From Thermodesulfobacteriota bacterium (lineage in GTDB: Bacteria; Desulfobacterota_D; UBA1144; Nemesobacterales; Nemesobacteraceae), in contig OZ244920.1 in the NCBI GenBank assembly GCA_965221875.1, positions 1,001,845 to 1,065,844 on the forward strand: a stretch of DNA of 64,000 bases, read 5' to 3'. The notes below the pieces were generated by a model, which searched no databases, had not been told where the DNA came from, and was given only the letters and a program-made list of their open reading frames with translations. Shown piece by piece: positions 10,359-64,000 of the stretch; position 1 is the stretch's first letter, and each line of letters opens with the position of its first letter. Made by a program: the position numbers and the translations under genes.

Positions 10359-10372
10359 TAGAAGAGCAGAGA

Positions 10373-10744
10373 ATGAAGATGATCATGGATCATTACGAGA
10401 ATCCGAGAAACTTCGGCCCGCTTGAGAGTCCCACGGTGACGCTTAGGGGCGGCAACCCGAATTGCGGAGACACGCTGAATATCTATATTCGTACAGCCGA
10501 GGGGGGCATCATAGAAGATATAAGTTTTGACGGAGAAGGTTGCACGATAAGTCAGGCCGCGGCTTCTCTTCTTACGGAATTTATAAAGGGAAAGACCGTG
10601 GAGCAGCTCAGAGAGCTCGACTCCGACTACCTCAGGGAACTTCTCGGCAAGGACATCATGGTAACCCGCCCGAAGTGCAGCCGCCTCGCCCTTGAAACCC
10701 TCAAATCATGGGCACGGAACTTCGAGAGGGGAAAAACCGCCTGA
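10373..10744 (+). CDS. sufU: SufU/IscU-type Fe-S cluster scaffold / sulfur transfer protein (NifU N-terminal domain)
   Basis: NPNCGDTLNIYI and GEGCTISQAAASLLTE motifs. The ISQA variant is typical of SufU. Confidence 0.8.
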   Translation: MKMIMDHYENPRNFGPLESPTVTLRGGNPNCGDTLNIYIRTAEGGIIEDISFDGEGCTISQAAASLLTEFIKGKTVEQLRELDSDYLRELLGKDIMVTRPKCSRLALETLKSWARNFERGKTA

Positions 10745-10796
10745 TTTTTGGTATACTTCTCTTTATTACTCAACCAGACTCAAGGAGATTCAAATA

Positions 10797-24254: not shown

Positions 24255-25706
24255 CCAACCCCCACCCACAAGAGACCTCATACACTCAGGCCTCCCAGCT
24301 TTTATGTGACCAACTGCAAGGGCCATCATCACCGCCAAAGCCAGCCCCACCCGGGTGGTCATCTTCGCCTTGCCCCTGATAAAGTGTTTTTCGAACCCGA
24401 AACTGTTATCGATTCTGGAGTTGATACGCTCTATGGCGCTTCTGCGCCTGTAAGCCCGTTTCCATGATGTACTGCACCGCGGCGTTGGAGTAAATATACG
24501 ACGGTCCTTCTCAAGAGGCACGCGTACGACCCTGCCGTAACCGTTTGTCTCGCATTGCGCATCCCTGTGACACTTCTCCCACCCTTTGCAGTGAAGACCA
24601 AGCACTGCCGCCGGACAGCGGAACTTCAAACTGCATCTACCGGGTTCAAACCCACTGAATACCATCTTGCGCTCTTCTCCGCTTACAGGACACCGACACC
24701 ATATCTGTCCCTTCTCCGTATAGAAGATATTGTCGTGAACACTCCCAAGAGGTCTCATGATCTTCTGTCCGCAAACATAGCTCTGTCCCTGCTTCTCCTC
24801 TCTCCAAAGTTCTCTTATGTCTATAATGGGACGAGTTTCATAATCATCCCAGAATTTCTTCTTCAAAGCACCGCTGTCAAGCCCCTTGTCAGCGCTGAAG
24901 TATCTGCATCTGTTTTTTAACTCCGGGGCTTTTCCAAACAACAGATCTGTCATGCGGTCAAGTTCCTTCACTTCCGAAACAGACGCCTTGGTCAAACTGA
25001 AGGCAACCGGTATCTCGTACCTGGTGTCGGCTATGATATGCAATCCGTAACCAAACCATGTTTTTATCTTCTTCCACGCCTTGCCGTTTGAATCAACGCC
25101 TTTGGTTTCGTGTTTTCCCCAGTCAGCCCCAGGGTCTGAAGTCTCCCCTGTCCTGCGATTCTCCTTTCCCGTGGAGTGGCTTTCTACGGCCTTGCCGTCA
25201 TAACCCAGGTTCTCACCGAAGTCAGGCAGCAGTTCCATCAGCTCTTCCCTCATTGTGTCAATCATCTTTGAGATAAGCCCCCGCTGTTGTTCAAGCTTTA
25301 CTATGTTTGAGAGGAACCGGGAGAAGGCAGAGCTTTTGGGAGCGGGAGTGCGGGGAGGGGAATCTATGGCTATCACCCCGGCTATGCCTTCACTCGGTTC
25401 AATTTCGTACCTGGTACGGCTTTGCAGGGGTACGGGGCAAAACCCGCACATCTCAAGCAGTGATGAGTTACGGTCAAGTTCCCGTATGAGTGATTCTATG
25501 GAGGCGTGCTGGAAGACTATGCCAGCAATAAGCGCCCTCCACATCGCCGCCACCGGGTATTCGTTACGGCCGTTTCCGCGCATTGCCAAAAGAGCGTGAA
25601 TGATTTCATCATCAGGCAATGCATCTAGAACAAGTTCGAGACGTCTGAGGTCGGAGAGTTTGTCGACTTGGTTCCAGCAAAAAGGTAGATTAGATTGTGT
25701 CGCCAT
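24234..25706 (-). CDS. IS1182/IS5-superfamily DDE transposase (DUF772 / InsH_N-like N-terminus). The last 6 codons and the stop are supplied by the inserted IS1634 end.
   Basis: N-terminal GRNEYPVAAMWRALIAGIVFQHASIESLIRELDRNSSLLEMCGF (DUF772 pattern) and C-terminal RSAIERINSRIDNSFGFEKHFIRG. Confidence 0.75.
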   Translation of the reverse strand: MATQSNLPFCWNQVDKLSDLRRLELVLDALPDDEIIHALLAMRGNGRNEYPVAAMWRALIAGIVFQHASIESLIRELDRNSSLLEMCGFCPVPLQSRTRYEIEPSEGIAGVIAIDSPPRTPAPKSSAFSRFLSNIVKLEQQRGLISKMIDTMREELMELLPDFGENLGYDGKAVESHSTGKENRRTGETSDPGADWGKHETKGVDSNGKAWKKIKTWFGYGLHIIADTRYEIPVAFSLTKASVSEVKELDRMTDLLFGKAPELKNRCRYFSADKGLDSGALKKKFWDDYETRPIIDIRELWREEKQGQSYVCGQKIMRPLGSVHDNIFYTEKGQIWCRCPVSGEERKMVFSGFEPGRCSLKFRCPAAVLGLHCKGWEKCHRDAQCETNGYGRVVRVPLEKDRRIFTPTPRCSTSWKRAYRRRSAIERINSRIDNSFGFEKHFIRGKAKMTTRVGLALAVMMALAVGHIKAGRPECMRSLVGGGWASGSLL

Positions 25707-25933
25707 GGGTTTTTTCCTCCGGGAAAGTGAATTTGGCTGTCACCATTAATTCTAACCCATGGCGACATTAAATCAAGTAATATCAGTAAGTTACTTGCCC
25801 CCGCATTAGTTTCAATCTGTTTGGTCTTGGGGTGAAATTTGTGGTTTCTGGAGAGAATCAGGCGGTTTTCGAGGGTTTTGGTAGAAATTCTGGGGTAAGA
25901 AATATTTTTGCCCATCCCAAACCCCTTGCCCTG
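24234..25933 (-). mobile_element. IS1182/IS5-like element, copy A, 3' end disrupted by the IS1634 insertion. Its 5' end was defined by comparison with copy B at 62988.
   Basis: About 230 bp upstream of the transposase start is conserved (roughly 85-90% identical) with the region upstream of the second transposase copy at 62988-63227. Confidence 0.5.
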
Positions 25934-26035
25934 CAGGCATATCCTTTACTACGCAAATGCCTCCCCAAGCGTGTTTATCAGGCCCGCAGAGAGAATTTTT
26001 TACGTTTTTGGGACTTTTTGTCTATAATTTCTGCC

Positions 26036-38818: not shown

Positions 38819-38988
38819 TTTCCGCGAGAATTCGTAAAAACCGTCTCCTCCCGCATACAGTTCGCCGGAGAGATCCGTTTCGGTGGGACGCTGAACGGAA
38901 GTTCCATGCGGCTGGCGAACCTGATTTTTTCACATCGGTCTCTTGCGGTTATATTAATCTGGATAACTGATTTATATTTCAACATCCT

Positions 38989-40482
38989 ATGAATACTCAA
39001 CTTATCATCAACTCGCTTTTTAATGAAACGAGGATAGCGGTCTTGGAGAAAAGCAGACTGATTGAGCTTTTCATCGAAAGAAAATCCAACTCTTCAATGG
39101 TGGGCAACATTTACAAGGGGAAAGTTGAAAAAATAGTCCCCGGAGTGCAGGCGGCATTCGTTGGCATGGGAGACGGCAGGTCCGGGTTTCTCTCTGCCGA
39201 GGATGTGTATGAGGAATCGCTTAGCGAACTTTTTCTTGAAGAGGAAATGACAAAAAAGACATCCAGAAAAAACCACCAGCCGATACAGAATGTCCTGCGT
39301 CAGGGTCAGGAAGTCATGGTTCAGGTTACAAAGGAACCCACCGGAAACAAAGGTCCCAAGCTTACTTCTCACGTAGGCATACCGGGCAAGTATCTTGTTC
39401 TGCTTCCCGGGTCAGACTCGGTGAACCTGTCCCGCAAAATAACGGACAGAAAAAGCAGGAAGAGATTTTCCGAGATCATGCGGAATAAACCCGAAGACAT
39501 GGGATTTATAGTAAGAACGGCGTGTGTGGAAGCGGAGGAGAAAAATATAAAGACCGAGATGAAAGCGCTTGTGAGGAAGTGGAGAAGGATAAAGAAAAAA
39601 TATGAAGAATCGAAAAACCCAGGCGCGATATATGAAGAAGCCGATACATGTATTAGGGTCATCAGGGACCTGATGGGAAACGGCCTTAAGAAAATTGTCG
39701 TTGACTCCCCCAAAGCCCACGGTCGGATCACCAAGTACTTTTCTGACAAGATTAAGAAAGATGGTTTCAGAGTCGATATATACGATAAAGAAGAACCCAT
39801 ATTCGACAGATACGGAATCGAGAGCCAGATCGAAAAAATGTACAGAAAAAAGGTCTGGATGAAGTCGGGAGGGTACCTGATCATAGACGAGGCTGAAGGG
39901 CTCACTGTGATAGATGTTAACTCTGGCAAACTCGTAGGAGAGGAATTTCACAAGAAAACAATAATGAAAACGAACGAAGAAGCCGCAGTTGAAGCCGCAA
40001 GGCAGATAAGGCTTCGCAATCTGGTCGGAATTATAGTTATCGATTTCATAGACATGCAGTCTGTTAGATCCAGAAAGAAGGTGGAGTCTCTTTTCACAGA
40101 TGAAATGAAAAAAGATAAAGCGAGGACCACGATCCAGGAAATATCGTCTTTCAGCGTAATCCAGCTTACCAGGCGCAGAGTCAGGGAAAGCATACTTTCC
40201 GACTTGACCGAACCCTGCGACATCTGTGAGGGAAGAGGGCGGATAAAGTCAATATACACCACCTGTTACGAGATACTGAGGGATATTGATCAATGGACAA
40301 GGCAGAGCGCTGAAGGACCTCTTGTTGTGCAGGCCAACAAGAAGGTCATAGCAAAACTCAGAGAAATAGAAGGAAGAGCCATAAGAAGAATCCAGCGGGA
40401 GAGGGGTGTAAAGATAAAATTCAAATCGACTGAAGATATTTTCGAGAGGTTCGCAATTTCCAGGGAAGGAAATTCCGGTTAG
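38989..40482 (+). CDS. rng: Ribonuclease G/E family endoribonuclease
   Basis: N-terminal S1 domain (VGNIYKGKVEKIVPGVQAAFVGMGDGRSGFL), DNase-I-like and Zn-link regions, about 500 aa as in RNase G. Confidence 0.85.
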   Translation: MNTQLIINSLFNETRIAVLEKSRLIELFIERKSNSSMVGNIYKGKVEKIVPGVQAAFVGMGDGRSGFLSAEDVYEESLSELFLEEEMTKKTSRKNHQPIQNVLRQGQEVMVQVTKEPTGNKGPKLTSHVGIPGKYLVLLPGSDSVNLSRKITDRKSRKRFSEIMRNKPEDMGFIVRTACVEAEEKNIKTEMKALVRKWRRIKKKYEESKNPGAIYEEADTCIRVIRDLMGNGLKKIVVDSPKAHGRITKYFSDKIKKDGFRVDIYDKEEPIFDRYGIESQIEKMYRKKVWMKSGGYLIIDEAEGLTVIDVNSGKLVGEEFHKKTIMKTNEEAAVEAARQIRLRNLVGIIVIDFIDMQSVRSRKKVESLFTDEMKKDKARTTIQEISSFSVIQLTRRRVRESILSDLTEPCDICEGRGRIKSIYTTCYEILRDIDQWTRQSAEGPLVVQANKKVIAKLREIEGRAIRRIQRERGVKIKFKSTEDIFERFAISREGNSG

Positions 40483-40501
40483 TTGAAAGGAGCATTCTAA
40501 G

Positions 40502-40924
40502 TTGAGTAAAAACGGATTTCTTTATCATGTGGCGATCGCCGTGAAAGATATCGAGAAGGCTGAAGATATCTACTCCAAACTACTCGGGCTTCGGGTTGTC
40601 CACAGAGAGGACGTGGTCAACTATGGGGTCAAGACATCGATGCTCTGCTCCGAATCGGAAGAGGGTACTGCTGTAGAACTTATCGAACCTTTGGACGAGA
40701 ATTCCCCGATTTCGCAGTTCCTTGAGAAAAGAGGGGAGGGCGTTCATCACATCTGCTTTCTTGTGGACGATGTTGAGGCTTCTCTGCGGGCCCTTGAAAA
40801 AGAAGGAGTCAGGCTTATTGATAAACATCCGCGGCCCGGATCTTACAACTGCAAAGTCGCCTTCATACATCCAAAGTCGATGAACGGAGTGCTGGTGGAG
40901 CTTGCCGAGAAGATAAGGGAGTGA
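40502..40924 (+). CDS. Methylmalonyl-CoA epimerase / VOC-family (glyoxalase-fold) protein. TTG start.
   Basis: LYHVAIAVKDIEKA...GEGVHHICFLVDDVEASL VOC signature. Confidence 0.8.
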   Translation: MSKNGFLYHVAIAVKDIEKAEDIYSKLLGLRVVHREDVVNYGVKTSMLCSESEEGTAVELIEPLDENSPISQFLEKRGEGVHHICFLVDDVEASLRALEKEGVRLIDKHPRPGSYNCKVAFIHPKSMNGVLVELAEKIRE

Positions 40925-40941
40925 GAAGAGCGCGTCCCCGG

Positions 40942-41121
40942 TTACGTGCCGCTCTGTTTTTCTTCCCTGTTCTCCGGATCGTCCTCTTTTAGAGATTTTC
41001 TGAACCCGCTTATCCCCTTGCCGAGAGAAGACCCGAGGTCCCCGAGTCTGCTTGGACCGAAGATTATGAGGAGAATTGCCAGTATCAGTACTAGCTCCCA
41101 TATGCCGAATTGTCCGAACAT
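40942..41121 (-). CDS. tatA: Twin-arginine translocase subunit TatA/E. Absent from the ORF track because it is under 60 aa.
   Basis: Own translation: MFGQFGIWELVLILAILLIIFGPSRLGDLGSSLGKGISGFRKSLKEDDPENREEKQSGT matches the TatA consensus (FGxxGxxELxxI...FGPxKLPxLGxxLGKxIxxFK). Confidence 0.75.
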   Translation of the reverse strand: MFGQFGIWELVLILAILLIIFGPSRLGDLGSSLGKGISGFRKSLKEDDPENREEKQSGT

Positions 41122-41216
41122 AACAGCGAAATAATACCTGAGTACTGCAGCTTCTCAAATGTCTTCAAATGATTCACGGCTGAAATTGAAAAACAAGACG
41201 CTTTCCTGTAAAATGG

Positions 41217-41846
41217 GTGCGTCGCGAGCAAAAAAAGACGGAGAGTTTTAACCGGCTTCTGGAGATTCGTCTCCGGCGACTTGCCTTACCTGATTCCATG
41301 TGCCGTAAACGATGCCTGTATATATTCCTGATGATTGTTGCCGTCGCGCTCGTAGTGGTCCAGGGGTCGGATGGACTTGCCCGGGGCGTCGGCGACGCCC
41401 GTGTTGAGACGGTGGAGGGACGCTGGCTTCTAATCCTGCCAGCAAGCGGGCTGCCCCGAACGCAGTCGGCCTCAGACGGCATCGTCGCGCAGTCATCCGA
41501 GTCAGCTTCGCATCGGACACACGTGGTTTACATTGAGGGTGCGACGTACAGCGCGGCAACACCTCTGCAGGGCCCGGGCGCCTGGATAGCATTTGACTTG
41601 GACCGGCGTCGCTTCGAATCGTTGCTGCCGAGTATCCGAGTCGAACTGGACGCGGGCGAGCGACTGGACACGGCTGTCGGCGCTGTCGGCGCTACTGGTG
41701 TGGAAGTATTTGACTCGCTTGGCTTTGCCATACTCTATCTGCCGTCAGACCTGTACCCCGCCGACGCGGCTGCACTGGTCCGCGGACTGTCCGGCCAGCC
41801 CGACGCTTCTGTTCGTCTGCGCGGGCCCCGGATTGAGTGGCGTTAA
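41217..41846 (+). CDS. Hypothetical secreted protein (start probably at the internal Met at 41298, preceding a signal-peptide-like helix). First gene of the high-GC island.
   Basis: ORF with a hydrophobic N-terminal segment (MCRKRCLYIFLMIVAVALVVVQG). GC is clearly higher than the flanks. Confidence 0.35.
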   Translation: MRREQKKTESFNRLLEIRLRRLALPDSMCRKRCLYIFLMIVAVALVVVQGSDGLARGVGDARVETVEGRWLLILPASGLPRTQSASDGIVAQSSESASHRTHVVYIEGATYSAATPLQGPGAWIAFDLDRRRFESLLPSIRVELDAGERLDTAVGAVGATGVEVFDSLGFAILYLPSDLYPADAAALVRGLSGQPDASVRLRGPRIEWR

Positions 41847-41872
41847 CTTTCTGCTTAGGAGGTAGGAACCGC

Positions 41873-44458
41873 ATGCGTACACTGGCACTTATTGCGGCGG
41901 GGCTGTTGAGTCTGGCCGGTTGCGACTCGCAACAACTGCTGTCTTCCCCTCTGGCAAGCGTTACCTTGGAGCTCTCCGGCGACTCTGAGGTTGAGGAGGC
42001 CGACAATCCGAAGGTACGGTTTACCCTCGGGCTTGACGCGCCCGTTTCCAGACCTGTCTTGGTGGCCTTGAGTCTGGACGGAACCGCCACCCGGGGTTAC
42101 GATTACGCGGTCAGCGACGCCCAGGTTCAGTTTCCGGCGGGCGCCACTTCCGCAAGTGTGGAAATCGATGTTTACCGCGACTTCGAGAAGGAAGGCGATG
42201 AAATGATCAAGGTCGGTCTTGGCTCGATTACGGGTAACGCGCGGGCCGGCGACCCATCCTCGATCACCCTGAGAGTGATCGACGGCCCTGCGGTCGGCGT
42301 GGACAAGTTCCCGCCTGATGACACAGACGGCGGGCAGGAGTCTGCGTCGGGACTTGCTGCCCTGAGTTTCGATGTCGCGGAAGATGCTGTCGTAGCCGTA
42401 GTGGTCGCGGAGGTCTTCCCGGATGCCTCCCCCGTGCCATTGGTAGCTGAGTGGTCCACGGACCCGACTTTCGCTTCGGACGTGAGGATCATCCGCAAGT
42501 GCTATGCTCCTTCGGAGGATTCTTCGGCCGACGGATCTGGACCGCCCATGAGCCCTTGCGAGGTCGCCGTCTCTGATGATCCGCTTGACCTTTTCTTATT
42601 TGCCAATCTGCGCCTGTTCAGGCTGCCCTCCGAGTCACTGGCACCCGACCGCCGCTATTTTTTTCGCATATGGATGGACGCCCCGCCGCCATCGTTCACC
42701 TTTGGCGAGGAATACCCGAATGTGGTTGCGATCAGTTTCGCCACCGATTCTGAGGGAGCAGTTCTCGTGCGATGCGAGACACCGGCACGAACACCCGCAC
42801 CAGAGGGCGGCGATCCCCTGTTCCACCAGCAGTGGCACCTGAAAAACACCGGTCAGAGGGCTTTCTCGAACCGCGGAGGAACTCCCGGCGCCGACCTGAA
42901 TATGACCACAGCCATCGACACGGGCCGAGACGGCGCGGGAGTGAAGCTCGCTGTGGTCGATACCGGGCTTGAGATCTGCCATCCGGATCTGGCAGCCAAT
43001 ACGTCTGCGGGCGGTTCGTTTAACTTCGGCGCAAGCGCCCGACCCGGCACTTCTTCCGATGATCCCTACAACTTTGCCTCAGCAGGGGACCACGGCACCA
43101 GCGTAGCCGGGGTTGCCGCGGCAGCCGCCAATAACGGTTTCGGCGGACGCGGCGTGGCGCCGGCGGTTACTCTTGTCGGGTTCAATCCGGCTCAAGCGGC
43201 GCCCGGCGAGTCCGGGGATCGGGACACGGCATTCAAGACCGCGCTCTTAAAGAGCCTTGGCGCTAGCACGAGCGAACCGGATTCGGCAAGCGTGGATATC
43301 TTCAACATGAGTTTCGGTGAACTCGTCGGCATAGGGAACCCGGATGAAGAACTCACACGCGTGCTCAGGATGGGAGTTGAGCAGCTTCGTTCGGGCCGCG
43401 GCGCGCTATACGTAAGGGCAGCCGGCAACGATTTTCTTGAGTCTTGCGAGCAACCTCATCCGCTCCAGAACGAGATAGGCTGCGTCGGCGCCAACTCCGA
43501 CCCCGACCAAAACATGCCGTGGATGGTCGTCGTGGGAGGCTTTAACGCCGACGACAGAAAGTCAACCCATTCAAGCACCGGCGCCAACCTGTGGGTAACA
43601 GGTCCTTCCGGCGAGGACGGCGTCGAAGCCCCGGCAATAATCACCACGGACCAGGCTGGTCCGTTCACCGGCTTCAACATCCTGAAGGAAAATCGTCTGA
43701 CCATGGATCATCCTTTGAATCGCGACGGCGACTACATCAGCGCCTTCGGCGGTACATCTTCGGCAGCTCCCGCGGTCTCCGGCGCCATCGCGATCCTCCT
43801 CGGGATCAGACCGGAGCTGACCTGGCGGGACGTGAAGCACATACTGGCAAGTACGGCGCGCAGGATTGACCCGGATATCGCCGAAGTCCGCGCCGCGTTC
43901 AACGGTACTCCCTACATCCTCCAGCACGCCTGGCAGAAAAACGGCGCCGGTTTCTATTTCCATAACTGGTACGGTTTCGGCGCGGTCGATGTCGACGCCG
44001 CGGTCGCGATGGCGGAAAGCCACACTGCTGACAGTCTGGGAGATCTGGTTGAATCGCAATGGTTTGGGTCCGCTCAAAAAGAAGGGCTCTCAGTGGACAT
44101 TCCCGATGCGGACGGGGCCGGGACCAGCGCCGCTTTGGAGGTCTCCGGCATCCCCGAGGATGCGGACATCGAGGCGGTGGTGCTTGAGGTCGATGTCAAT
44201 GGCGGCGATGCGTTCGACCTTGGCATTACCCTCCGCTCACCCGCAGGCACGCAGAGCGTGCTCAGCACACCCCTAAACAGCATGCTCAAGGGCTTGCCTG
44301 GAATATCCAGTTGGCGCCTGCTCAGCAACGCCTTCTACGGCGAGAATCCAAACGGCGCATGGACCCTGCATGTGGCTGACATCGCCGCCCACGACACAGC
44401 CACGCTGACTGGCTGGAAACTGCGGTTCTACTACGGCGGCACCCACGGCGTGAATTAA
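41873..44458 (+). CDS. Subtilisin-like serine protease (peptidase S8) lipoprotein with an N-terminal Calx-beta domain and a C-terminal proprotein-convertase P-domain
   Basis: Lipobox LSLAGC. Calx-beta motif (DYAVSDAQVQFPAGATSASVEIDV). Catalytic triad motifs VVDTGLEICHPDL, DHGTSVAGVAAA and GTSSAAPAVSGAIAILL. Confidence 0.85.
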   Translation: MRTLALIAAGLLSLAGCDSQQLLSSPLASVTLELSGDSEVEEADNPKVRFTLGLDAPVSRPVLVALSLDGTATRGYDYAVSDAQVQFPAGATSASVEIDVYRDFEKEGDEMIKVGLGSITGNARAGDPSSITLRVIDGPAVGVDKFPPDDTDGGQESASGLAALSFDVAEDAVVAVVVAEVFPDASPVPLVAEWSTDPTFASDVRIIRKCYAPSEDSSADGSGPPMSPCEVAVSDDPLDLFLFANLRLFRLPSESLAPDRRYFFRIWMDAPPPSFTFGEEYPNVVAISFATDSEGAVLVRCETPARTPAPEGGDPLFHQQWHLKNTGQRAFSNRGGTPGADLNMTTAIDTGRDGAGVKLAVVDTGLEICHPDLAANTSAGGSFNFGASARPGTSSDDPYNFASAGDHGTSVAGVAAAAANNGFGGRGVAPAVTLVGFNPAQAAPGESGDRDTAFKTALLKSLGASTSEPDSASVDIFNMSFGELVGIGNPDEELTRVLRMGVEQLRSGRGALYVRAAGNDFLESCEQPHPLQNEIGCVGANSDPDQNMPWMVVVGGFNADDRKSTHSSTGANLWVTGPSGEDGVEAPAIITTDQAGPFTGFNILKENRLTMDHPLNRDGDYISAFGGTSSAAPAVSGAIAILLGIRPELTWRDVKHILASTARRIDPDIAEVRAAFNGTPYILQHAWQKNGAGFYFHNWYGFGAVDVDAAVAMAESHTADSLGDLVESQWFGSAQKEGLSVDIPDADGAGTSAALEVSGIPEDADIEAVVLEVDVNGGDAFDLGITLRSPAGTQSVLSTPLNSMLKGLPGISSWRLLSNAFYGENPNGAWTLHVADIAAHDTATLTGWKLRFYYGGTHGVN

Positions 44459-44478
44459 CCCGCGACTGTCAAGCCATA

Positions 44479-44670
44479 ATGGAAACTGCCGTGCTCTCTG
44501 AGACTGCAAAGACGCTCGCTGGTCGCGGGGAAGCTCCCAGAGTCTTTTTCCTGAGAACCATATCGGGCGATAAGGTGGATTTCGTGGTTGAGACGGAAGG
44601 GAAGCCTGCGCTTGTAGAGGTAGAACTGTCGGCTACGCCGCATTGCGGTTTTATCAGTCAGAACTTTTGA
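44479..44670 (+). pseudogene. C-terminal fragment of a DUF4143 / COG1373 AAA-ATPase gene
   Basis: RVFFLRTISGDKVDFVVETEGKPALVEVELSAT resembles the C-terminus of the 4642..5772 ATPase (LYFFRDNTGNEVDLLEQDGADLLSYEIKTTQT). There is no N-terminal ATPase part. Confidence 0.45.
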
Positions 44671-44866
44671 TGTTTTCAACGCTGAATTTTACTGGCTTGT
44701 CATCGTAGAGCGCCGCTATCCATCTTATAGGTCTTGCGAAGGTCAGTTTTCCGTCGCCCCATCTCATTGATTTCCGGAAGGGGATTGATGAGATTACTCC
44801 CGGAAGAATTTCTTTTAGAACGGATGAAGTTTTTTTTCTTTTTACCGTTTTCCTTACACAAATATT
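44656..44866 (-). repeat. About 205-bp near-identical (1 mismatch) duplicated copy of an internal glyS segment (other copy at about 49063-49270)
   Basis: Direct comparison of the two stretches. The encoded peptide of ORF 44654..44968 is identical to glyS residues ...[20 protein letters not shown]...SVENIKSSD. Confidence 0.85.
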
Positions 44867-45140
44867 TTCAGATGATGCTGTGAATTTACCGATATTATGT
44901 CTGAGGGGATGGAGGAATTGAGGTTGACATTCTATATTCTGAATGCATGATTCCCACTGGGAAAGCACGCAATGAACCTTCCGTATGTAAAAAGATCGCT
45001 TGAGACCGTGTTCATAAAGGCCGTTTCGCGGTTTATGGCCGTATTTCGCTTGTCGCCGCCTTCCGGGCGTGAATCAGAGGTGGCATTCGCGAAGGAGAGC
45101 CTTGCCGTGTACGGGCAGGACAGCCTAGTGTGGTAATGTC

Positions 45141-46136
45141 ATGCGGGTGATCACGGGAGCGAGCGGCCATATCGGCGGCGTGCTTGCGCGGGACTTGGCG
45201 GGGCGGTACGACGCCTGCCCGGTTCGCGCGATATTCCGCAAGAGGCGGGGCACCGCCGCGGATCTTGACGTCGAGTGGGTCAACGGCGACATTCTAGACA
45301 AGGAATCACTGCTCACCGCTTTCACGGGCGCGGAAGTTGTCTTCCATCTGGCCGCCCTAGTCTCGATTGATCCCGGCAGGGGGGGAAAAGTCCATACAAC
45401 GAATGTCTCAGGCACACGTAACGTTGTCGAGGCCGCCCTTGAATGTGGAGTGAGGCGGCTCGTTTACTTTTCCTCGATTCACGCCTACAACCAGTACCCA
45501 CTTGACGAAGTTCTCGATGAGGGCCGCGATTCCGCCGACGGCCCGCGGCACGATGCCTATGCCCGGTCGAAAGCCGCCGGCGAGGCGGAAGTTCGCCGCG
45601 GCATAGATCGCGGTCTGGATGCCGTAATTCTTAATCCGACCGGCGTAATCGGCCCTTTCGACGGCGGGCCTTCGCATATGGGACAGTTCTTCCTCGACCT
45701 GCACCGGAGGAGAATTCCCGCGCAGATCGCGGGCGGTTTTGATTGTGTCGATGTGCGCGATGTCGTAGATGCTGCAGTGGCCGCCGAGACGCAAGCGAGG
45801 TGCGGCGAAAACTACATCCTGTCAGGCGGTTGGCATTCCATGCGCGATTTGGCGCTACTGTCCCAACAGGCGACCGGGGTGGCAGTGCCCCGTTTCGTGT
45901 TCCCCATGTTTCTGGCCCGGTTTTGGGCGCCTTTCCAGGTCATTTTGGACCGTAGTCGCGGGCGCCGGCCCCTCTATACGCCTGCTGCGCTACGCTTCGT
46001 GAGCGGTGGCAACCAGCAGGTATCCAGTGCCAAGGCGCAGGCGGAACTCGGGTTCAGGTCGCGTCCCTTGGCGGATTCGGTGAGGGACACCTATCGATGG
46101 TTTGACGAGCAGGGCATGCTCGGCGAGGGTGGTTGA
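45141..46136 (+). CDS. NAD-dependent epimerase/dehydratase family protein (extended SDR)
   Basis: MRVITGASGHIGGVLARDL Rossmann motif and the Yx3K region. High GC. Confidence 0.8.
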   Translation: MRVITGASGHIGGVLARDLAGRYDACPVRAIFRKRRGTAADLDVEWVNGDILDKESLLTAFTGAEVVFHLAALVSIDPGRGGKVHTTNVSGTRNVVEAALECGVRRLVYFSSIHAYNQYPLDEVLDEGRDSADGPRHDAYARSKAAGEAEVRRGIDRGLDAVILNPTGVIGPFDGGPSHMGQFFLDLHRRRIPAQIAGGFDCVDVRDVVDAAVAAETQARCGENYILSGGWHSMRDLALLSQQATGVAVPRFVFPMFLARFWAPFQVILDRSRGRRPLYTPAALRFVSGGNQQVSSAKAQAELGFRSRPLADSVRDTYRWFDEQGMLGEGG

Positions 46137-46137
46137 G

Positions 46138-46899
46138 ATGGCAGAAGAACAACTTCACCGCGTGATGATATGGGCAGTTATTGCTGTGGCTCTTCCGACG
46201 TTCCTGTACCTGTTCCGTAAAACCGCGCCCTATGGCCGTCATTACGCAGGCACGGGCTGGGGGCCGCACATTTCCAGCAGGCTCGGCTGGATCATCATGG
46301 AACTGCCGGCGGTCGTAGTCTTCCTCGCCGTCTATCTTAACGGGAAGGCCGCGTTCCACATCGTGCCGCTGCTCTTTGTGGTCATGTGGCAGGGGCATTA
46401 TCTGAACCGGGCGCTCATTTACCCGTTTCGGATCCGGGCGAGCGGACGAAAGACGCCGTTGCTGGTCATCGGGTCAGGTTTTTTCTTCAATGTGATTAAC
46501 GCCTACATAAATGCCCGGTTCATTTCGGAATTCGGTGGGTATGCCGTTGAATGGCTCGTCGACCCTCGTTTCCTGATCGGCGTCGGGATTTTCCTGGGCG
46601 GGATTGCTCTCAACATCCACGCCGACAGTACCCTCATTCGTCTGCGCAGGCCGGGCGAGACCGGTTATGTGATTCCACAGGGTGGCGGGTTTCGCTTTGT
46701 CTCGTGCCCGAATTACATGGGTGAAATCCTCGAATGGGTAGGCTGGGCGCTAGCAACGTGGTCGTTGAGTGGCCTCGCCTTCTTGTTGTTCACCTCCGCC
46801 AATCTCGTTCCCAGGGCGCGCAGCAACCATCAATGGTATGTGGAAACTTTCAAGGATTATCCACCGCACCGCAAGGCCCTGATACCGGGCATTTATTGA
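46138..46899 (+). CDS. Polytopic membrane protein of the 3-oxo-5-alpha-steroid 4-dehydrogenase / DUF1295 family
   Basis: C-terminal NYMGEILEWVGWAL...YVETFKDYPPHRKALIPGIY signature of the steroid 5-alpha-reductase family. ATG sits 2 nt after the upstream stop. Confidence 0.65.
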   Translation: MAEEQLHRVMIWAVIAVALPTFLYLFRKTAPYGRHYAGTGWGPHISSRLGWIIMELPAVVVFLAVYLNGKAAFHIVPLLFVVMWQGHYLNRALIYPFRIRASGRKTPLLVIGSGFFFNVINAYINARFISEFGGYAVEWLVDPRFLIGVGIFLGGIALNIHADSTLIRLRRPGETGYVIPQGGGFRFVSCPNYMGEILEWVGWALATWSLSGLAFLLFTSANLVPRARSNHQWYVETFKDYPPHRKALIPGIY

Positions 46900-47074
46900 T
46901 TGACATGCTTATGGTTGCGTATAAATTCTGGCAAGACTCGACCGTATCAGAGGTCCGTGGACGAGTTTCGAATAATCAACTGATGCCCTTGGGGCGAGCG
47001 GTCCGGATGATCCGTAAATCCGTTAACGGATCCAACTTGCTTTCAATTGTGCTCTCGAACTCGAAGGAGTACCA

Positions 47075-47334
47075 ATGATTGAAATGACCGATCGGGCTTT
47101 TGGGCCGCCCGGTCCCGTCCTCATCACCGGGGGAACGGATACATTGAGTCATGGCTGGTCAAGAGACTCCTTGAACTTGATTACGACGTACACACGATGG
47201 TTCGCAATCTGACGGACCCGAAAAAGAATTTGCATCTCGAGGCCATAGCCATAAATTCGCCGGGCTCCTTGTCGCTCTATGGAGCCGAGTTGCTGGTTGC
47301 CAGCTTTGTGGAGCCGGTCACAATCTCACCATAG
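47075..47334 (+). pseudogene. Frameshifted N-terminal fragment of a cinnamoyl-CoA-reductase-like NAD-dependent epimerase/dehydratase
   Basis: RBS AAGGAG then MIEMTDRAFGPPGPVLITGGTDTL, frame switch, then ...WLVKRLLELDYDVHTMVRNLTDPKKNLHLEAI... followed by stops. Only about 85 aa of an expected ~330 aa. Confidence 0.5.
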
Positions 47335-47441
47335 TCCCCGGTTTCGTGAAGAAAACCCCTCTCAAAAGCGAAGGCCTTCTCATAGAATTCAAGAGTTCCT
47401 ACAACATCGTCCACATAGAGTATGGTATATCGAAACAGCAT
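47277..47441 (-). pseudogene. N-terminal fragment (54 codons) of a VOC / glyoxalase-family gene
   Basis: MLFRYTILYVDDVVGTLEFYEKAFAFERGFLHETGDYGEIVTGSTKLA then stop. A VOC domain needs about 120 aa. Confidence 0.4.
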
Positions 47442-47523
47442 TTACGCCTCCTGTAAATTTCTCATGCTGGGTACCTCGAATAAACCCTGACCAAGCTGGC
47501 GCCTTGCTAAAGTTGATTGCGGG

Positions 47524-49614
47524 TCAGATTTTCGAGAAATCGGCGATCATGAAAAACAGATCTTTTATTTCATTGAGCAGAGCCAGACGATTGTCTCTGA
47601 TTTTCTTGTTTTTATCCATGACCATTACTGCGTCAAAGAAACGATCTATTGGTGCGGAGAGTGTTTTTATGGATTCAAGCGCTTTGAGGTAATCGCTTTG
47701 CCTGGCAGTTTTTTCAGAATCGGCCAATTTCTTTAAAACCGCTGTCTGTGTCTTGGTAAAAGCTCTATGGAGGTCCTTTTCCTCTTTCTGCTTGAACAGC
47801 TTCTTGTCAAGCGGTGAAGACGGTCTGGTTTTTGCTATGTTGAAAACCCTCTTAAAGCCTGTAGCTAGGGCCTCAAAATCCTTTCGTTTTGCGAATTTCT
47901 CAAGCGCGTTTATTCTGCGGTAGGCGTCAAGAGGATTGTCAAAACCTGCCGAGATTACGGATTCGACGACATTTCTTTCGTAACCTGACTCTGTCATTAG
48001 GTTGCGGAATCTCTCGGAGAAAAACGCGAGAATGTTCACTTTAAGTTCTTCTTCGGACAGTTTGCCATTACGAGCTTTTTGCGCACCCATGGAATCGAGC
48101 ACCAGCCTTATGCCGCGTTCAAGGAGTGTGGAGAGGGAAATATCAAGCTTCTTCTCTATGGCGATTCTGATTATCCCCAGGGTCTGTCTTCTCAGCGCGT
48201 AGGGATCAGAAGACCCCGTAGGGGCCAGCCCGGCGATAAAACAGGAGCAGATATTGTCCGTTTTGTCCACTATGCTTAGAAGTGCTCCGGTTTTCGTTCG
48301 CGGGAGTTCACCGGTTCTCGTAAGCGGCATGTATTGTTCCTCGACCGCGTTCGCGACGGTTTTTTTCTCCTTGGAAGTAAGTGAGTAATACTTGCCCATG
48401 ACACCTTGGAGTTCGGCGAATTCAAAGACCATTTGGGTCGCGAGGTCGGACTTTGAGAGTTCCGCGGCCCTTTCAAGATCGGGACTGGCAAAAATGTCGG
48501 CGGCAAGCATCCTCATACGCTCGACTTTTTCGCTGTAAGTTCCTATATCAGATAGAAACACCATGCTCTCAAGATCTTCTGTGTAGGCGCTTAGGCTTTT
48601 CTTCGTATCTTCGGAGAAAAAGAATTCGGCGTCGTTAAGTCTTGCCCTTATTACCCGCTCGTTTCCCCTTATAATTACCTGTTTATCCTTAACCGGGGTT
48701 CCGCAGACAAAGATGAAACAGGGAAGAAGCTTGCCGGTCTTCTCAGAATAAACAGGGAAATATTTCTGGTGATTCTTCATCACGCTTATAAGAACTTCCT
48801 CGGGCAATCGCAGGTATTTTTCCTCGAATTCTCCCACCAGAACCGTTGGATGCTCCACCAGGTTCACCACGGTTTCAAGCAGTTCAGGATCTTCCTTTAT
48901 GGTTCCGCCTATCTTTTTGGCCGCCGCCTCTGTGTCCCTTCTTATGATTTCCTTTCTTTTCTCCGGGTCCGCTACTACGTTGTTTTTCTCAAGTGTTTTC
49001 AGATAGTTTCTCCAGGATGTCACTCGGAACGGTTTTGGGGAAGAGAACCTGTGACCGAAGCTTCGGTCAGAACTTTTGATGTTTTCAACGCTGAATTTTA
49101 CTGGCTTGTCATCGTAGAGCGCCGCTATCCATCTTATAGGTCTTGCGAAGGTCAGTTTTCCGTCGCCCCATCTCATTGATTTCCGGAAGGGGATTGATGA
49201 GATTACTCCCGGAAGAATTTCTTTTAGAACGGATGAAGTTTTTTTTCCTTTTACCGTTTTCCTTACACAAAGGAATTCCCCGTTATCCCTTTTTGCGATG
49301 ACGAGTTCCTCAACATTGACCCTCTGGGATCTGGCGAAACCCACGGCGGCCTTGGTGGGCTTTCCGTCTTCATCAAACGCTATGCGCTTGGGCGGTCCGA
49401 AGTTCTCGGTCGTGCGGTCTCCCTGCTTTCTCTGAAGTCCGCTTACCCTTGCCGAAAGCCTTCTCGGAGTATAGAAGATTTCCATTTCCTCGAATTCAAC
49501 ACCTTTGTCACGGAGTTCTCCGCTTAGGATGTTGCCCAGATCCTCCCGGGCTTTTTCAAGGAATAGAGCAGGTATTTCCTCCGTTCCGATTTCGAGTATT
49601 AGTTCTTTTTCCAT
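47524..49614 (-). CDS. glyS: Glycine--tRNA ligase beta subunit
   Basis: [17 protein letters not shown]-terminus and overall GlyS architecture. The ORF is open to 49677, but the start was chosen at the conserved Met. Confidence 0.9.
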
Positions 49615-50486
49615 GGGTTGTTTTTCAGGAGGGGGAATCCTAGGTTTTCTCTGGTCTGCAGATATGAAGTCGCGCACAGATTCGCAAGCGCCCTTACCCT
49701 CGCTATGTATGAGGCCCGCTCGGCTACCCCTATCGCCCCTCTCGCGTCAAGCAGGTTGAAGGTGTGCGAACTTTTAAGACAGTATTCGTAAGCGGGGAGG
49801 GGAAGCTGCTTTTCGATAAGAGATCTGCATTCCTGTTCGTACATATTAAACAGGTCGCTTAGCATCGCGGGGTCGGATTCCTCGAAGTTGTACTTTGAGA
49901 ACTGGACTTCGCTCTGATGATGAATCTCCCCGTACGTTATCCCCTTTGTCCATTCAAGATCGTAAACGCTTTCAACTTCCTGCAGGTACATTGCTATTCT
50001 CTCGGTTCCGTACGTTATCTCGGCCGATATCGGATCAAGATCTATGCCGCCCGCCTGCTGAAAATAGGTGAACTGCGTTATTTCCATGCCGTCAAGCCAT
50101 ACTTCCCACCCAAGTCCCCACGCTCCGAGCGTCGGGGATTCCCAGTCATCCTCGACGAACCTTATGTCGTGCTCAAGCGGGTTTATGCCGAATGACTTGA
50201 GGCTGTCGAGGAAAAGTTCCTGAATGTCGTCAGGGGAGGGCTTTATTATCACCTGGAACTGATAGTAGTGCTGGAGCCTGTTGGGATTGTCGCCGTAACG
50301 TCCGTCGGTCGGTCTCCTCGAAGGCTCTACATAGGCCACGTGCCAGGGCTCAGGGCCCAAACATCGCAGGAAAGTGGCTGGATGAAAGGTTCCGGCGCCT
50401 TTCTCTATGTCGTACGGCTGGACCACCAAACATCCCTTGGATGACCAGTAGTCTTGGAGAGCCAGAATAAGTTCCTGATATGTCAT
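49599..50486 (-). CDS. glyQ: Glycine--tRNA ligase alpha subunit
   Basis: [19 protein letters not shown]...[14 protein letters not shown], highly conserved GlyQ. Confidence 0.95.
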
Positions 50487-50598
50487 GACCGGAAAATACT
50501 ACCACTAAAATAGAAGAATCAAATACGCCGCTTTGTTCGTTGAGGCTTTAACCGCAAGTACGTTCAGTAATCTACAAGCATGATTGCTATGAGGTTGT

Positions 50599-51738
50599 TT
50601 ATTGACCGTTTGTTTCCTGCCGGTTCGGTTCCTCAAACGGAGGCAGGTTGAGCCAGTAGCGCGTGTGGCGTCGCTGGCCTGTTCTGCGAAGCGCGCCCAT
50701 GTCTACCAGATTGGAGAGATCTCGCGTCGCCGTTGAAGCCGTTGCCCCGGTTATCCTGTGATAGTTCTGTGCGCTGAGCCCACCCTCAAAGCCTTCTGGT
50801 TCGGCGTCGAAGAGTCGTAGCAAAATTTTCTCTTGGCGTGGGTTCAGCGAGCCGCGGAGCTGATTGAACAAGTGTGTCTGCTGGGTTGACCGGGTCAGAC
50901 GGCGTTCGCTCCAGATCTGAGCGTCTAATACGGTATTCGCAAACCACCTAAGCCAGTCGGTGATATCAAGCGATCTGGAACTCTCATCCAAAATGTCGTA
51001 GTAGGCTTTGTGTCGTCGAGCGATGGTGCGGGAAAGCGCAACTAGGCTCGGTTCGCCGAGTGACTGAGCGAGAGCTTTTTCCGCCAAGGCGCGGGCTATG
51101 CGCCCATTTCCATCCTCGAAGGGATGAATACGCACAAAGTACAAGTGTGCGGTTCCCGCCCAGGTCAAAGAAGATAGCCTATCCCCGATGGATGCGGTCT
51201 GGCCGTACCATGCTACGAAACGTTCCATCTCCTCTGTCATCCGCTCCGAAGGGGGTGCTTCATAGTGAACCTTTGGTTTGTAGTCGGGCCCGGAAACCAC
51301 CTGCATAGGTTTGGGGTGGCGACGATAGCCGCCGACAACTTCTAGGTAAGTGCGGTCTCGCATGAGCATCCGGTGCCAGCGCCACAGCGTTTCGTGGTTC
51401 AGCGGGCGGTCATACTCATGGTAGAGCGCTACCATCATTTCAGCTACCCCTTCTTCTTCAGGTGAAGCAGTCTCCTTGCCGGTAGTTAACCCGAATCGTC
51501 GGCGGATAGAGGCTTGCACTGATTCCCGGTCGAGAATTTCACCTTCAATTGCGGATGTCTCAACGGCTTCGCCGCTTAACCACTTGACCCGCAGTTCGGA
51601 CTGATCTTCATTGGTGAGCTGACGCCAGGCGCCGATTCTGCGCCCCGACTCGTGCAGGAATCGCTTCTCCAGAGGTATCAGAGCAGACCGGTCCCATGTA
51701 AAGTTTGGCCAGTCAGAATGTTGCCATACCCATTTCAT
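50599..51738 (-). CDS. Fic family protein (DUF4172-type N-terminus plus Fic core)
   Basis: Fic motif HPFEDGNGRIARAL. N-terminal WVWQHSDWPNFTWD pattern. Confidence 0.85.
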   Translation of the reverse strand: MKWVWQHSDWPNFTWDRSALIPLEKRFLHESGRRIGAWRQLTNEDQSELRVKWLSGEAVETSAIEGEILDRESVQASIRRRFGLTTGKETASPEEEGVAEMMVALYHEYDRPLNHETLWRWHRMLMRDRTYLEVVGGYRRHPKPMQVVSGPDYKPKVHYEAPPSERMTEEMERFVAWYGQTASIGDRLSSLTWAGTAHLYFVRIHPFEDGNGRIARALAEKALAQSLGEPSLVALSRTIARRHKAYYDILDESSRSLDITDWLRWFANTVLDAQIWSERRLTRSTQQTHLFNQLRGSLNPRQEKILLRLFDAEPEGFEGGLSAQNYHRITGATASTATRDLSNLVDMGALRRTGQRRHTRYWLNLPPFEEPNRQETNGQ

Positions 51739-51829
51739 GAGCGATAAGAATGCCCCCTATAGCCCACATTTTTACCTATTTCTGGGCTATAGGGCAAATG
51801 CTATGGTTTCAGCAAAAGGCGGATACACG

Positions 51830-53149
51830 CTAAAAAGGTTCGTACGCGCGTATGCTCTCGATGGCTCTTTGAGCGATGATTCCACGCTTCTTTTCCTTTC
51901 CCATCCTGCCTTCCACCTTGGGAAAAAGCCCGAAGTTTATGTTCATCGGCTGAAACCCGGTTTTTCCGGGAACCGAGATGTACTCAAGCAAAGAGCCTAT
52001 GGACGTCTCCCTCGGGGCCGGGGCGGGCACAAGCCCGAGTGCTTTTCTCGAGGCGTTTATTCCGCAGACAATCCCGGTTGCCGCGGACTCGACGTACCCT
52101 TCGACTCCCGTGATCTGTCCGGCGAAGAAAACGCTCGGGCGGGATTTCAGGGAAAGGTCTTTCTCAAGCAGCCTCGGGGAATCTATGTATGTGTTTCTGT
52201 GCACGCTTCCATATCTTAGAAATTCCACCCTCTCAAGCCCCGGAACCTTTCTGAAAACAGCCCTTTGCTGAGGGTATTTGAGCTTTGTCTGAAAACCCAC
52301 CATGTTGTACATGGTTTCCTCGGTGTTCTCCGTTCTCAGCTGCAGGACGGCAAAGGGAATTTTGCCGGTTCTCGGATCGACAAGGCCAACCGGTTTTAAT
52401 GGGCCGAACCGAAGCGTCTCCCTTCCTCTCTCGCACATGACCTCAACCGGCATGCAGCTTTGAAAATAAATCGCCTTCTCAAACTCCTTGGTTTCCACTT
52501 TTTCTCCGTGAATGAGGTCATCCACAAGCTCGTAGTACTGGTCTTGGGAGAGCGGACAGTTGAGATAGTCTCCATCTCCCGAGTCTTCGCGGTCGTACCT
52601 TGATCCTCTGAAGGTTTTCGAGCGGTCGATTGTATCCGCGTCGATTATCGGCGAGATGGCGTCGTAGAAGTAAAGATATTCGGACTCGGTGAGCGAGGAA
52701 ATCTCGGCGCAAAGCGCATCGGATGTAAGCGGGCCGGTGGCCACGATCACGATTCCGTCTTCTGGTATTTTGGTTACCTCTTCCCTTCTTAAGTCTATAA
52801 GTCCGTTGCCCTGGATTTTTTGCGTTATGTAATCAGAGAATATCTCCCTGTCGACCGCAAGTGCCTTCCCGGCCGGAACCCTTGACGCTTCGGCCGCTTC
52901 GATAACAAGCGAGCCAAGGCATCTCATCTCCTCTTTCAGTATTCCGGAGGCGTTCTCCATGGATGCCGATTTCAGGGAATTGCTGCACACAAGCTCCGCG
53001 AGTCCGGAGGTCTTGTGCGCGGCGGTTTTTCTGCGGGGCCTCATTTCGTAGAGAACCGCCCTTATTCCGAACTTTGTTATCTGGTTCGCGGCTTCGACTC
53101 CGGCGAGTCCCGCGCCGATTATGATTATTGGTGACTGTTTTTCGTCCAT
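51830..53149 (-). CDS. trmFO: Methylenetetrahydrofolate--tRNA-(uracil54-C5)-methyltransferase
   Basis: IIIIGAGLAGVEAANQ FAD-binding motif and TrmFO/Gid-specific sequence throughout. Confidence 0.9.
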   Translation of the reverse strand: MDEKQSPIIIIGAGLAGVEAANQITKFGIRAVLYEMRPRRKTAAHKTSGLAELVCSNSLKSASMENASGILKEEMRCLGSLVIEAAEASRVPAGKALAVDREIFSDYITQKIQGNGLIDLRREEVTKIPEDGIVIVATGPLTSDALCAEISSLTESEYLYFYDAISPIIDADTIDRSKTFRGSRYDREDSGDGDYLNCPLSQDQYYELVDDLIHGEKVETKEFEKAIYFQSCMPVEVMCERGRETLRFGPLKPVGLVDPRTGKIPFAVLQLRTENTEETMYNMVGFQTKLKYPQQRAVFRKVPGLERVEFLRYGSVHRNTYIDSPRLLEKDLSLKSRPSVFFAGQITGVEGYVESAATGIVCGINASRKALGLVPAPAPRETSIGSLLEYISVPGKTGFQPMNINFGLFPKVEGRMGKEKKRGIIAQRAIESIRAYEPF

Positions 53150-62874: not shown

Positions 62875-62987
62875 ATATGTGAACCGATCTAACGTAAACC
62901 TATCTTATTTCCCCTTTTTCATCAAGGGCGAAAATTCTACTTTAAAATTCTACTTTGAGGCATTTGCGTAGTTAAAGATACCCATAT

Positions 62988-64000
62988 AGGGCAAGGGGTT
63001 TGTGAAGGGCAAAAATATTTCTTACCCCGGAATTCCCGCCAGAACCCTTGAAAGCGGCCTGATTCTCTCCAGAAACCACAAATTCCACCCCAAGACCGAA
63101 TCCGTCGCAGTGCGCTGAAGGGGGGGGGCAGAGAAGCAAGTAACTTGCTGATATCACTTGATTTAATGTCGCCACGGGTTAGAATTAAAGGTATCTGCAA
63201 AATACATTCTCCCGGAGGAGCCAACCCGTGACGACACAAATTAACTTACCTTTTTCCTGGGACAGAGTCGACAGCCTCTCAGACCTCAACCGTCTTGGTC
63301 TCGTACTTGACGCCCTGCCCGACGCAGACATTATCAACGCTCTTTTGGAGACGCGGGCTAACGGGCGCAACGAATACCCCGTGGCAGCGATGTGGAGAGC
63401 CTTGATAGCGGGAATAGTCTTCGGGCACGAATCCATCGAGTCACTCATACGGGAGCTTAACCGCAATTCCTCGCTGCTCGCGCTGTGCGGATTCAGTTCC
63501 GTGCCCCTGCAAAGACGTACCAGCTACAGGATTACCGACGGAACCGGGGTCACGGCTATAGATTCTCCTCTCCGCAGTCCTGCTCCCGGAAGTCACAACT
63601 TCTCCCGCTTTCTCTCAAACGTAGTCAGGATTGAAGAGGAGAAGGGGCTTATCTCAAAGATGATTGACGCACTGAGGGAGGAGCTTATGGAACTGCTGCC
63701 TGACTTCGGGGAGAGTCTGGGTTATGACGGCAAGGCGGTAAGGAGCAACTCCACGGGACGGAAGAACGGCAACAGAGGGGAGACGTCAGACCCCGAAGCC
63801 GACTGGGGTAAGCATGAATACTCCGGGGTTGACTCCTCTACGGGGAAAACATGGACGAAGATAAAGAGATGGTTCGGCTACGGGCTGCATATCATGGCGG
63901 ACACCAAGTACGAGCTGCCGGTTGCCGTGAGCGTGACCAGGGCTTCTGTTTCCGAGGTAAGGGAACTTGACCGGATGACGGACGTGCTGTTCGGCAAAGA
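62988..64000 (+). mobile_element. IS1182/IS5-like element, copy B (5' part; continues beyond the window)
   Basis: 62988-63227 is about 85-90% identical to the reverse complement of 25707-25933. The transposase paralog follows. Confidence 0.55.
63228..64000 (+). CDS. IS1182/IS5-superfamily transposase, second (diverged) copy. GTG start. 3' end lies outside the window.
   Basis: Own translation from GTG 63228: (M)TTQINLPFSWDRVDSLSDLNRLGLVLDALPDADIINALLETRANGRNEYPVAAMWRALIAGIVFGHESIESLIRELNRNSSLLALCGF..., about 75% identical to the 24234..25706 product. RBS GGAGGAG upstream. Confidence 0.7.
   Translation, partial: MTTQINLPFSWDRVDSLSDLNRLGLVLDALPDADIINALLETRANGRNEYPVAAMWRALIAGIVFGHESIESLIRELNRNSSLLALCGFSSVPLQRRTSYRITDGTGVTAIDSPLRSPAPGSHNFSRFLSNVVRIEEEKGLISKMIDALREELMELLPDFGESLGYDGKAVRSNSTGRKNGNRGETSDPEADWGKHEYSGVDSSTGKTWTKIKRWFGYGLHIMADTKYELPVAVSVTRASVSEVRELDRMTDVLFGK

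Follow-up and report, generated by a model that had tools for sequence, protein, structure and literature searches.

A segment of glyS, the gene for the beta subunit of glycyl-tRNA synthetase (GlyRS), occurs twice in the 64,000-nt stretch of DNA analyzed here (the window), once inside the gene and once about 4.4 kb away at the edge of an insertion. The locus raises the question of whether the second copy is genuine, how it came to lie there, and whether it does anything. It is almost certainly a real, inherited, and non-functional recombination scar. The best explanation for its origin is a non-functional glyS relic of a spacer-to-glyS duplication whose upstream copy was largely deleted, to which we assign a probability of roughly 0.6.

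Repeat edges were defined with a repeat search over the 64-kb window and by direct reading of both copies. The search returned a direct repeat of 209 nt (44654-44862 and 49063-49271) whose copies start 4409 nt apart. The copies differ at two positions, A/G at 44656/49065, which is the repeat edge, and T/C at 44841/49250, adjoining a T-run. Trimmed to its clean extent (44657-44862 = 49066-49271), the repeat spans 206 nt in direct orientation and has one mismatch; judged from the sequences, such identity over 206 nt cannot have a chance origin. The near-identical copy of a glyS segment about 4.4 kb away, described in the initial annotation, is thereby confirmed with coordinates that were off by 2-4 nt at most, and so is the single C/T difference placed at the T-run, the second difference being the repeat edge itself. 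Other long repeats in the window are limited to one diverged inverted pair (25090-25963 and 62957-63835) with three arms of 144-392 nt that are 78%-87% complementary and 37 kb apart, probably a paralogous gene pair in opposite orientation. The two copies and the genes around the second are as follows.

44657..44862, minus strand: copy 1, a glyS-derived pseudogene fragment of 206 nt, in the same orientation as glyS, at the right edge of a 3.7-kb insertion
47524..49614, minus strand: glyS, glycyl-tRNA synthetase beta subunit, intact (Pfam tRNA_synt_2f, E=2.8e-202)
49066..49271, minus strand: copy 2, the parental segment within functional glyS, codons ~116-183 of the 696-aa protein
49599-50486: glyQ, next after glyS

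The translation of copy 1 also matches Pfam tRNA_synt_2f, and its glyS content amounts to 68 of 696 codons. Its flanks have no relation to glyS, as had been said of its surroundings, and GC content around it drops from 61% to 43% and goes back up. The gene itself is called as a 696-aa gene with unchanged synteny in all relatives.

Relatives were gathered via GlyQ and cluster members; GlyS (in its 717-aa and 696-aa forms) and the S8 peptidase encoded in the insertion gave no match when looked up as exact proteins. Those that encode an identical GlyQ (L001-L010) have a common gene order of glyQ, glyS, a steroid-reductase-family gene, an epimerase gene, tatA, glyoxalase, and RNase G. L003, with 96-98% identity to the window, is the closest relative with an "empty" site. 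L011 (JAJDTG010000010.1, a Candidatus Dadabacteria MAG) matched a 36-nt string across the left junction and is ~0.7% different from the window, plus small indels. Further assemblies are L012 (Logan SRR16351682), L018 (SAMN22237332, a 237-kb scaffold), L019 (SAMN22237333), L021 (GCA_022822345.1), three Logan contigs assembled at k=31 (L020, L022, and L023), and L024 (KELL22-1 SAMN22237346 scaffold_1596). Sample names of the relatives (KELL22-1, NGUY21-1, PANK22-1, and ENGE20-1), together with the literature, suggest that the lineage is one of sponge-associated Dadabacteria.

The window is colinear with L018 and L021 throughout 36.5-50.7 kb. Identity between the window and L018 is ~99.3% at 38.5-49 kb and merely ~85% in the trmFO region (51639-53130). 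A DUF4172/Fic gene (50599-51738) is present in the window, L001, L003, L005, and L008 and absent from L018 and L021. Presence or absence of the Fic gene and the divergence of trmFO point to strongly mosaic genomes that would have been shaped by inter-strain recombination.

Copy 1 occurs with both of its junctions, base for base, in five further assemblies (L011, L012, L018, L019, and L021), giving six carriers including the window. Some of these five were probably re-assembled from the same read sets, and recurrence is judged at the assembly level. A chimeric join, or a repeat collapsed or expanded during metagenome assembly, might be suspected from the metagenome-derived nature of the window, from the GC jump around copy 1, and from the fact that the repeat does break k=31 assemblies. 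All three k=31 contigs stop at the window equivalent of 44686, after 30 nt (k-1) of the repeat, the behavior expected of a de Bruijn assembler that runs into a true repeat. The repeat had been proposed as a source of assembly ambiguity, and for short k it is one. The junctions on both sides of copy 1 are identical in the five other assemblies, which derive from different pipelines and several samples, so that a mis-join or chimera at the 44.6-kb copy is effectively excluded. In addition, the copy carries allele-specific mutations that are absent from the resident glyS on the same contig, and the high-GC neighbors (epimerase and steroid reductase) are native to the lineage. An assembly artefact has a negligible probability on this evidence. 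The idea that the stretch of ~61% GC at 41.2-47 kb is a single foreign island or chimera was rejected, because equally GC-rich epimerase and steroid-reductase genes are native beside glyS in many relatives.

Alignment with L003 defines the context of the copy. L003 aligns to window positions 38901-41173 and then to 44859-46917, which leaves a 3.7-kb insertion in the tatA-epimerase spacer. The insertion has three parts: an S8-peptidase cassette, 55 codons of an AAA_14/DUF4143 ATPase gene (AAA below), and the 206-nt glyS piece. Features from tatA to the start of glyS, other than copy 1, are listed from left to right.

40942..41121, minus strand: tatA, the conserved left neighbor of an insertion hot spot (ORF; Pfam TatA_B_E on homologous genes)
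41156..41176, no strand: left copy of the spacer hot spot, cassette-linked haplotype, CAAATGTCTTCAAATGATTC
41177..44464, plus strand: two-gene cassette, GC ~61% (Pfam), absent from L003
41217-41846, plus strand: cassette gene 1, a ~190-aa ORF without clear family
41873-44458, plus strand: cassette gene 2, an S8/P-domain/Calx-beta lipoprotein-like peptidase (Pfam)
44473..44646, plus strand: 3' fragment of an AAA_14/DUF4143 ATPase gene (Pfam DUF4143), equal to aa 332-386 of the 431-aa protein of L024
44859..44876, no strand: right copy of the spacer hot spot, equal to the "empty" haplotype of L003, CAAATATTTTCAGATGAT
44924..45042, plus strand (decayed spacer to 45136): 5' remnant of an AAA_14/DUF4143 gene (aa ~25-53) in the native spacer, also present in strains without the insertion
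45141-46136, plus strand: NAD-dependent epimerase gene, native (Pfam), between the repeat copies
46102-46899, plus strand: steroid 5-alpha-reductase-family gene, native (Pfam), between the repeat copies
46918..47511, no strand: second patch of gene debris, between the steroid-reductase gene and glyS

Three junctions bound these parts. At J1 the cassette meets the spacer between 41176 and 41177. At J2, ~10 nt (44647-44656) separate the AAA fragment from the glyS piece and lie outside both assigned blocks. At J3, glyS position 49271 is joined to spacer position 44859 inside a shared CAAA (44859-44862; junction sequence CCTTACACAAATATTTTCAGATG). The observation that the copy adjoins an AAA-ATPase fragment at a recombination junction is thus borne out, a truncated DUF4143 gene being found there. 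This fragment (44473-44646) has 84.6% nucleotide identity to L024 11902-12070, and 76% identity to L024 at the amino acid level. The 5' remnant in the native spacer (44924-45042) is 75.6% identical to L024 10937-11057 at the nucleotide level, with 59% over 29 aa by BLASTP, and 44859-44920 is 100% identical to L003. The insertion is flanked by two copies of a spacer motif, CAAAT.T.TTCA.ATGAT, one at 41156-41173 and one at 44859-44876, which differ at 3/18 positions.

The genes to the right of the insertion are those of the lineage, with the epimerase and steroid-reductase genes found at this position in L003, L004, L006, L009, and L010. The second debris patch is itself composite. Its first ~380 nt (46918-47296) are what remains of the 5' part of a second epimerase gene, of which L009 and L007 have an intact version, and the following 215 nt (47297-47511) had no match in the relatives fetched and contain a 54-aa VOC/glyoxalase-like N-terminal ORF (weak Pfam, E=0.15).

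The cassette (window 41217-44458) also occurs in L013 (9409-12604), L014 (9413-12586), and L025 (4042-6836), and is found in at least three unrelated chromosomal contexts among Dadabacteria, for example between aspS and sucA. No recombinase was found near it at its Dadabacteria sites.

Unrelated mobile elements lie within ~15 bp of the same spacer point (window ~41150-41176 / 44859-44880) in L005, L007, and L008. L005 (~13.9-17.0 kb) has an IS1595-type transposase element with an 8-bp target duplication, TTTCAGGA. L007 (~15.1-17.3 kb) has an IS4-like element with ends CACGGTGATTCCGT and target duplication GGATGGTAC. The element in L008 (14256-18840, within ~13.9-19.3 kb) has inverted ends equal to the IS1595-type ends of L005 (core ACAATGCTAGCC); its cargo is a type III restriction-modification pair (ResIII helicase/endonuclease and N6_N4 methylase), no transposase was called, and it may be a non-autonomous cargo element.

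The order of segments in L024 differs from that in the window. Glyoxalase, tatA, and the spacer are followed by the cassette, by ~22 nt of the AAA gene (nt ~985-1007), and by 48 nt from the 3' end of glyS in native orientation (= window 47524-47571). The glyoxalase 3' end, tatA, and the spacer then recur as a diverged second copy of 582 bp, after which come a full-length 431-aa AAA_14/DUF4143 gene and the epimerase gene; the rearranged stretch covers 10243-10902 in locus coordinates. The junction between the S8 and AAA sequences is common to L024 and the window and is older than the remaining structure. Both haplotypes have AAA and then glyS pieces in chromosomal order, followed by a leftward jump, to the spacer in the window and to glyoxalase in L024. 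By its arrangement, L024 would be an independent instance of the same pattern with other break points.

Mutations in copy 1 provide a relative age. The copy allele in the five other carriers has CC>TT, has lost 1 nt of the T-run, and lacks the C>T of the window. In L018 and L021, where the copy and the gene are on one contig, three more sites distinguish the copy from the resident glyS, and at those sites the copy retains the window/L003 state. Different mutations in each sublineage and divergence from the resident glyS indicate that the copy is inherited, is older than the split of the sublineages, and mutates independently. The initial annotation had called the duplication very recent. The copy is evolutionarily recent, but "very recent" is an overstatement: it predates the split of sublineages that are ~0.7% apart at the locus, each with its own mutations, and in L018 and L021 it no longer equals the resident glyS. 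Gene conversion that keeps the copies identical was rejected on the same divergence in these two assemblies. The sole ORF through copy 1 (44654-44968, minus strand, 104 aa) is frameshifted by the 1-nt deletion in five of the six carriers, and a reading frame conserved across carriers was not found. This frameshift and the content of 68/696 codons speak against a functional glyS paralogue or domain gene. Copy 1 is an inherited pseudogene fragment without coding constraint.

The duplication and deletion that we favor as the origin of the fragment would have proceeded in two steps. First, a segment that begins in the spacer and extends rightwards into glyS would have been duplicated. Unequal or illegitimate exchange could have done this, as could the insertion of a second haplotype or circularized fragment, and the join point would lie between glyS 49271 and spacer 44859, where both share the 4-nt microhomology CAAA. 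A deletion between AAA codon ~386 and glyS 49066 would then have trimmed the redundant copy upstream. Lost with it would have been the epimerase and steroid-reductase genes, the 3' end of AAA, and the 3' half of glyS, and the residue would be colinear debris consisting of the AAA fragment, the glyS fragment, and the spacer. The locus has what looks like the join point of a tandem duplication, with glyS 49271 abutting spacer 44859 in direct orientation at the shared CAAA. It is also colinear, with the AAA piece (aa 332-386) before the glyS piece (49066-49271) in native orientation, and L024 is alike. We infer the two steps from this anatomy of the locus. The ~10 nt at J2 that belong to neither block count against them, and the duplicated copies are of different haplotype (cassette versus AAA remnant), so that inter-strain recombination or an extra event would be needed. 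No less-trimmed duplication was found in relatives, all six carriers in this limited sample sharing the same J1-J3, and scans of JGI metagenomes with the J3 pattern and with a conserved AAA pattern returned zero matches. Roth and colleagues have reportedly described join points of bacterial duplications and amplifications, and tandem duplications remodeled by deletion. As in such remnants, the right end of the segment (glyS 49271) runs straight into its left end (spacer 44859) over a microhomology of a few bases, and the redundant copy would have been trimmed to pieces that are colinear and in native orientation. Unlike in those remnants, the copies here are of different haplotypes, and the untrimmed duplication is reconstructed rather than observed.

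The same structure could have arisen in one step, by serial template switching (MMBIR/FoSTeS-like) or patchwork break repair during joining of the cassette, without any larger duplication. Synthesis would have moved from an AAA template to glyS 4.4 kb off, copied 206 nt, and continued in the spacer 18-21 nt upstream of its point of departure. Templated insertions of the MMBIR/FoSTeS kind consist of short stretches from templates a few kilobases away, stitched together at microhomologies of 2-5 nt into patchwork junctions. The short blocks from nearby templates (~170 and 206 nt), the 4-nt microhomology at J3 with the small spacer duplication of 18-21 nt, the second patch of ~200-400-nt gene pieces at 46918-47511, and the lack of intermediates among the sequences found all fit this description. 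At least three switches would be needed, however, and an independent repeat event that again involved glyS would be required for L024. Colinearity and native orientation in both haplotypes, which duplication and deletion require, would be mere coincidence, and spacer copies of different haplotypes (3/18) are unexpected from a single intramolecular event. Template switching therefore equals duplication and deletion in accounting for short blocks and microhomology, and explains colinearity, the recurrence in L024, and the spacer haplotypes less well; the strict colinearity and the differently broken analogue in L024 better fit deletion of a longer duplicate. We regard a one-step origin as possible, though unlikely. 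Homology-facilitated illegitimate recombination (HFIR) in natural transformation, reportedly described by de Vries and Wackernagel, is said classically to delete or replace recipient DNA. The locus resembles HFIR in that a foreign cassette with its own left-flank haplotype was apparently integrated with one side homologous and the other at microhomology, and differs from it in that classical HFIR duplicates no distant segment of a recipient gene.

A mobile element that captured or moved the glyS piece, through IS-mediated transduction or as an island with a gene-end duplicate as attachment site, would be in keeping with the IS1595-type and IS4-like elements that the spacer hosts in other strains and with the differing loci of the cassette in other Dadabacteria. 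The insert itself is without transposase, integrase, or inverted ends. None of its ORFs encodes a transposase or integrase, Pfam gave an S8 peptidase and DUF4143 alone, and its left end has no inverted match anywhere in the 64-kb window. Moreover, the repeat copies do not bound an element, and glyS is intact, the copy being gene-internal and not a replaced gene end. As in the att-site gene-end duplications of integrative islands, part of a housekeeping gene is directly repeated a few kilobases from the intact gene; unlike in those islands, the repeated part is internal (codons 116-183) rather than the 3' end, no integrase or tRNA is found, and the DNA between the repeats is native in relatives. 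Transposition of a coding fragment, which had been offered as an alternative to duplication, has no support, as no transposase, integrase, or inverted ends are associated with the copy, and we consider capture by a mobile element very unlikely. The spacer duplication that flanks the insert is 18-21 nt long, well above the 8-9-bp target-site duplications of true IS insertions at the site. That this flanking repeat of 18 bp is a target-site duplication or an att core was judged improbable, because it is imperfect and represents two haplotypes of one spacer, and also because the insert is without inverted ends or a recombinase. Campbell-type integration through the 206-nt homology was rejected as well, since it would split glyS, yet glyS is intact.

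A direct repeat of this kind could also be a substrate for deletion. Copy-to-copy recombination would delete 44863-49271, including glyS codons 184-696 (74% of glyS), and leave a stump of 183 codons. Bacteria with the alpha2-beta2 enzyme cannot do without the GlyRS beta subunit, so deletants should be inviable. No deletion product was seen among the strains compared, and those without the copy (L003) have an intact empty spacer. The initial annotation was right that a repeat-mediated deletion of 4.4 kb would remove the epimerase and steroid-reductase genes, but the same event would take most of glyS as well. The reciprocal product, a 4.4-kb tandem duplication, would be tolerated. Persistence of the fragment is thus attributed to its neutrality and to the destruction of an essential gene that recombination with glyS would cause.

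A function for the fragment could take two forms, an RNA read through from the S8 gene that is antisense to glyS mRNA and tunes GlyRS, or a peptide from the 104-aa ORF. Plus-strand transcripts through the copy would complement glyS mRNA, there is no terminator-like site from the S8 stop codon (44458) to the fragment, the first on the plus strand being at 45028, and the fragment is kept in all six carriers. A young neutral segment would be expected to be retained in any case. Five of the carriers have a frameshift in the ORF, and the copy drifts from the resident glyS in L018 and L021. Rfam covariance models had no match at the gathering threshold in 40000-51000, a tRNA scan found none, and the Rfam, tRNA, and terminator scans together suggest no RNA element. 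A functional fragment is accordingly highly improbable. A specific form of exaptation, in which transcription of the cassette would yield a 206-nt glyS antisense RNA and so couple the peptidase cassette to down-tuning of GlyRS, is a conjecture to which we give even less credence. If it were true, the lethality of the repeat-mediated deletion would also "lock" the epimerase and steroid-reductase genes in place.

Copy 1 is an ordinary scar, the neutral remnant of a gene where an indel was joined, and opens no larger question. The result is mainly a clean negative, in which a suspicious near-identical repeat in a metagenome-derived genome is genuine biology and not a chimera. The copy accounts for the breaks that short-k assemblies of this species show here. 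J2 and J3, together with the private mutations of the copy, are a lineage marker for one Dadabacteria sublineage across samples, and the locus documents a tatA-adjacent spacer that has repeatedly gained insertions and gene debris.
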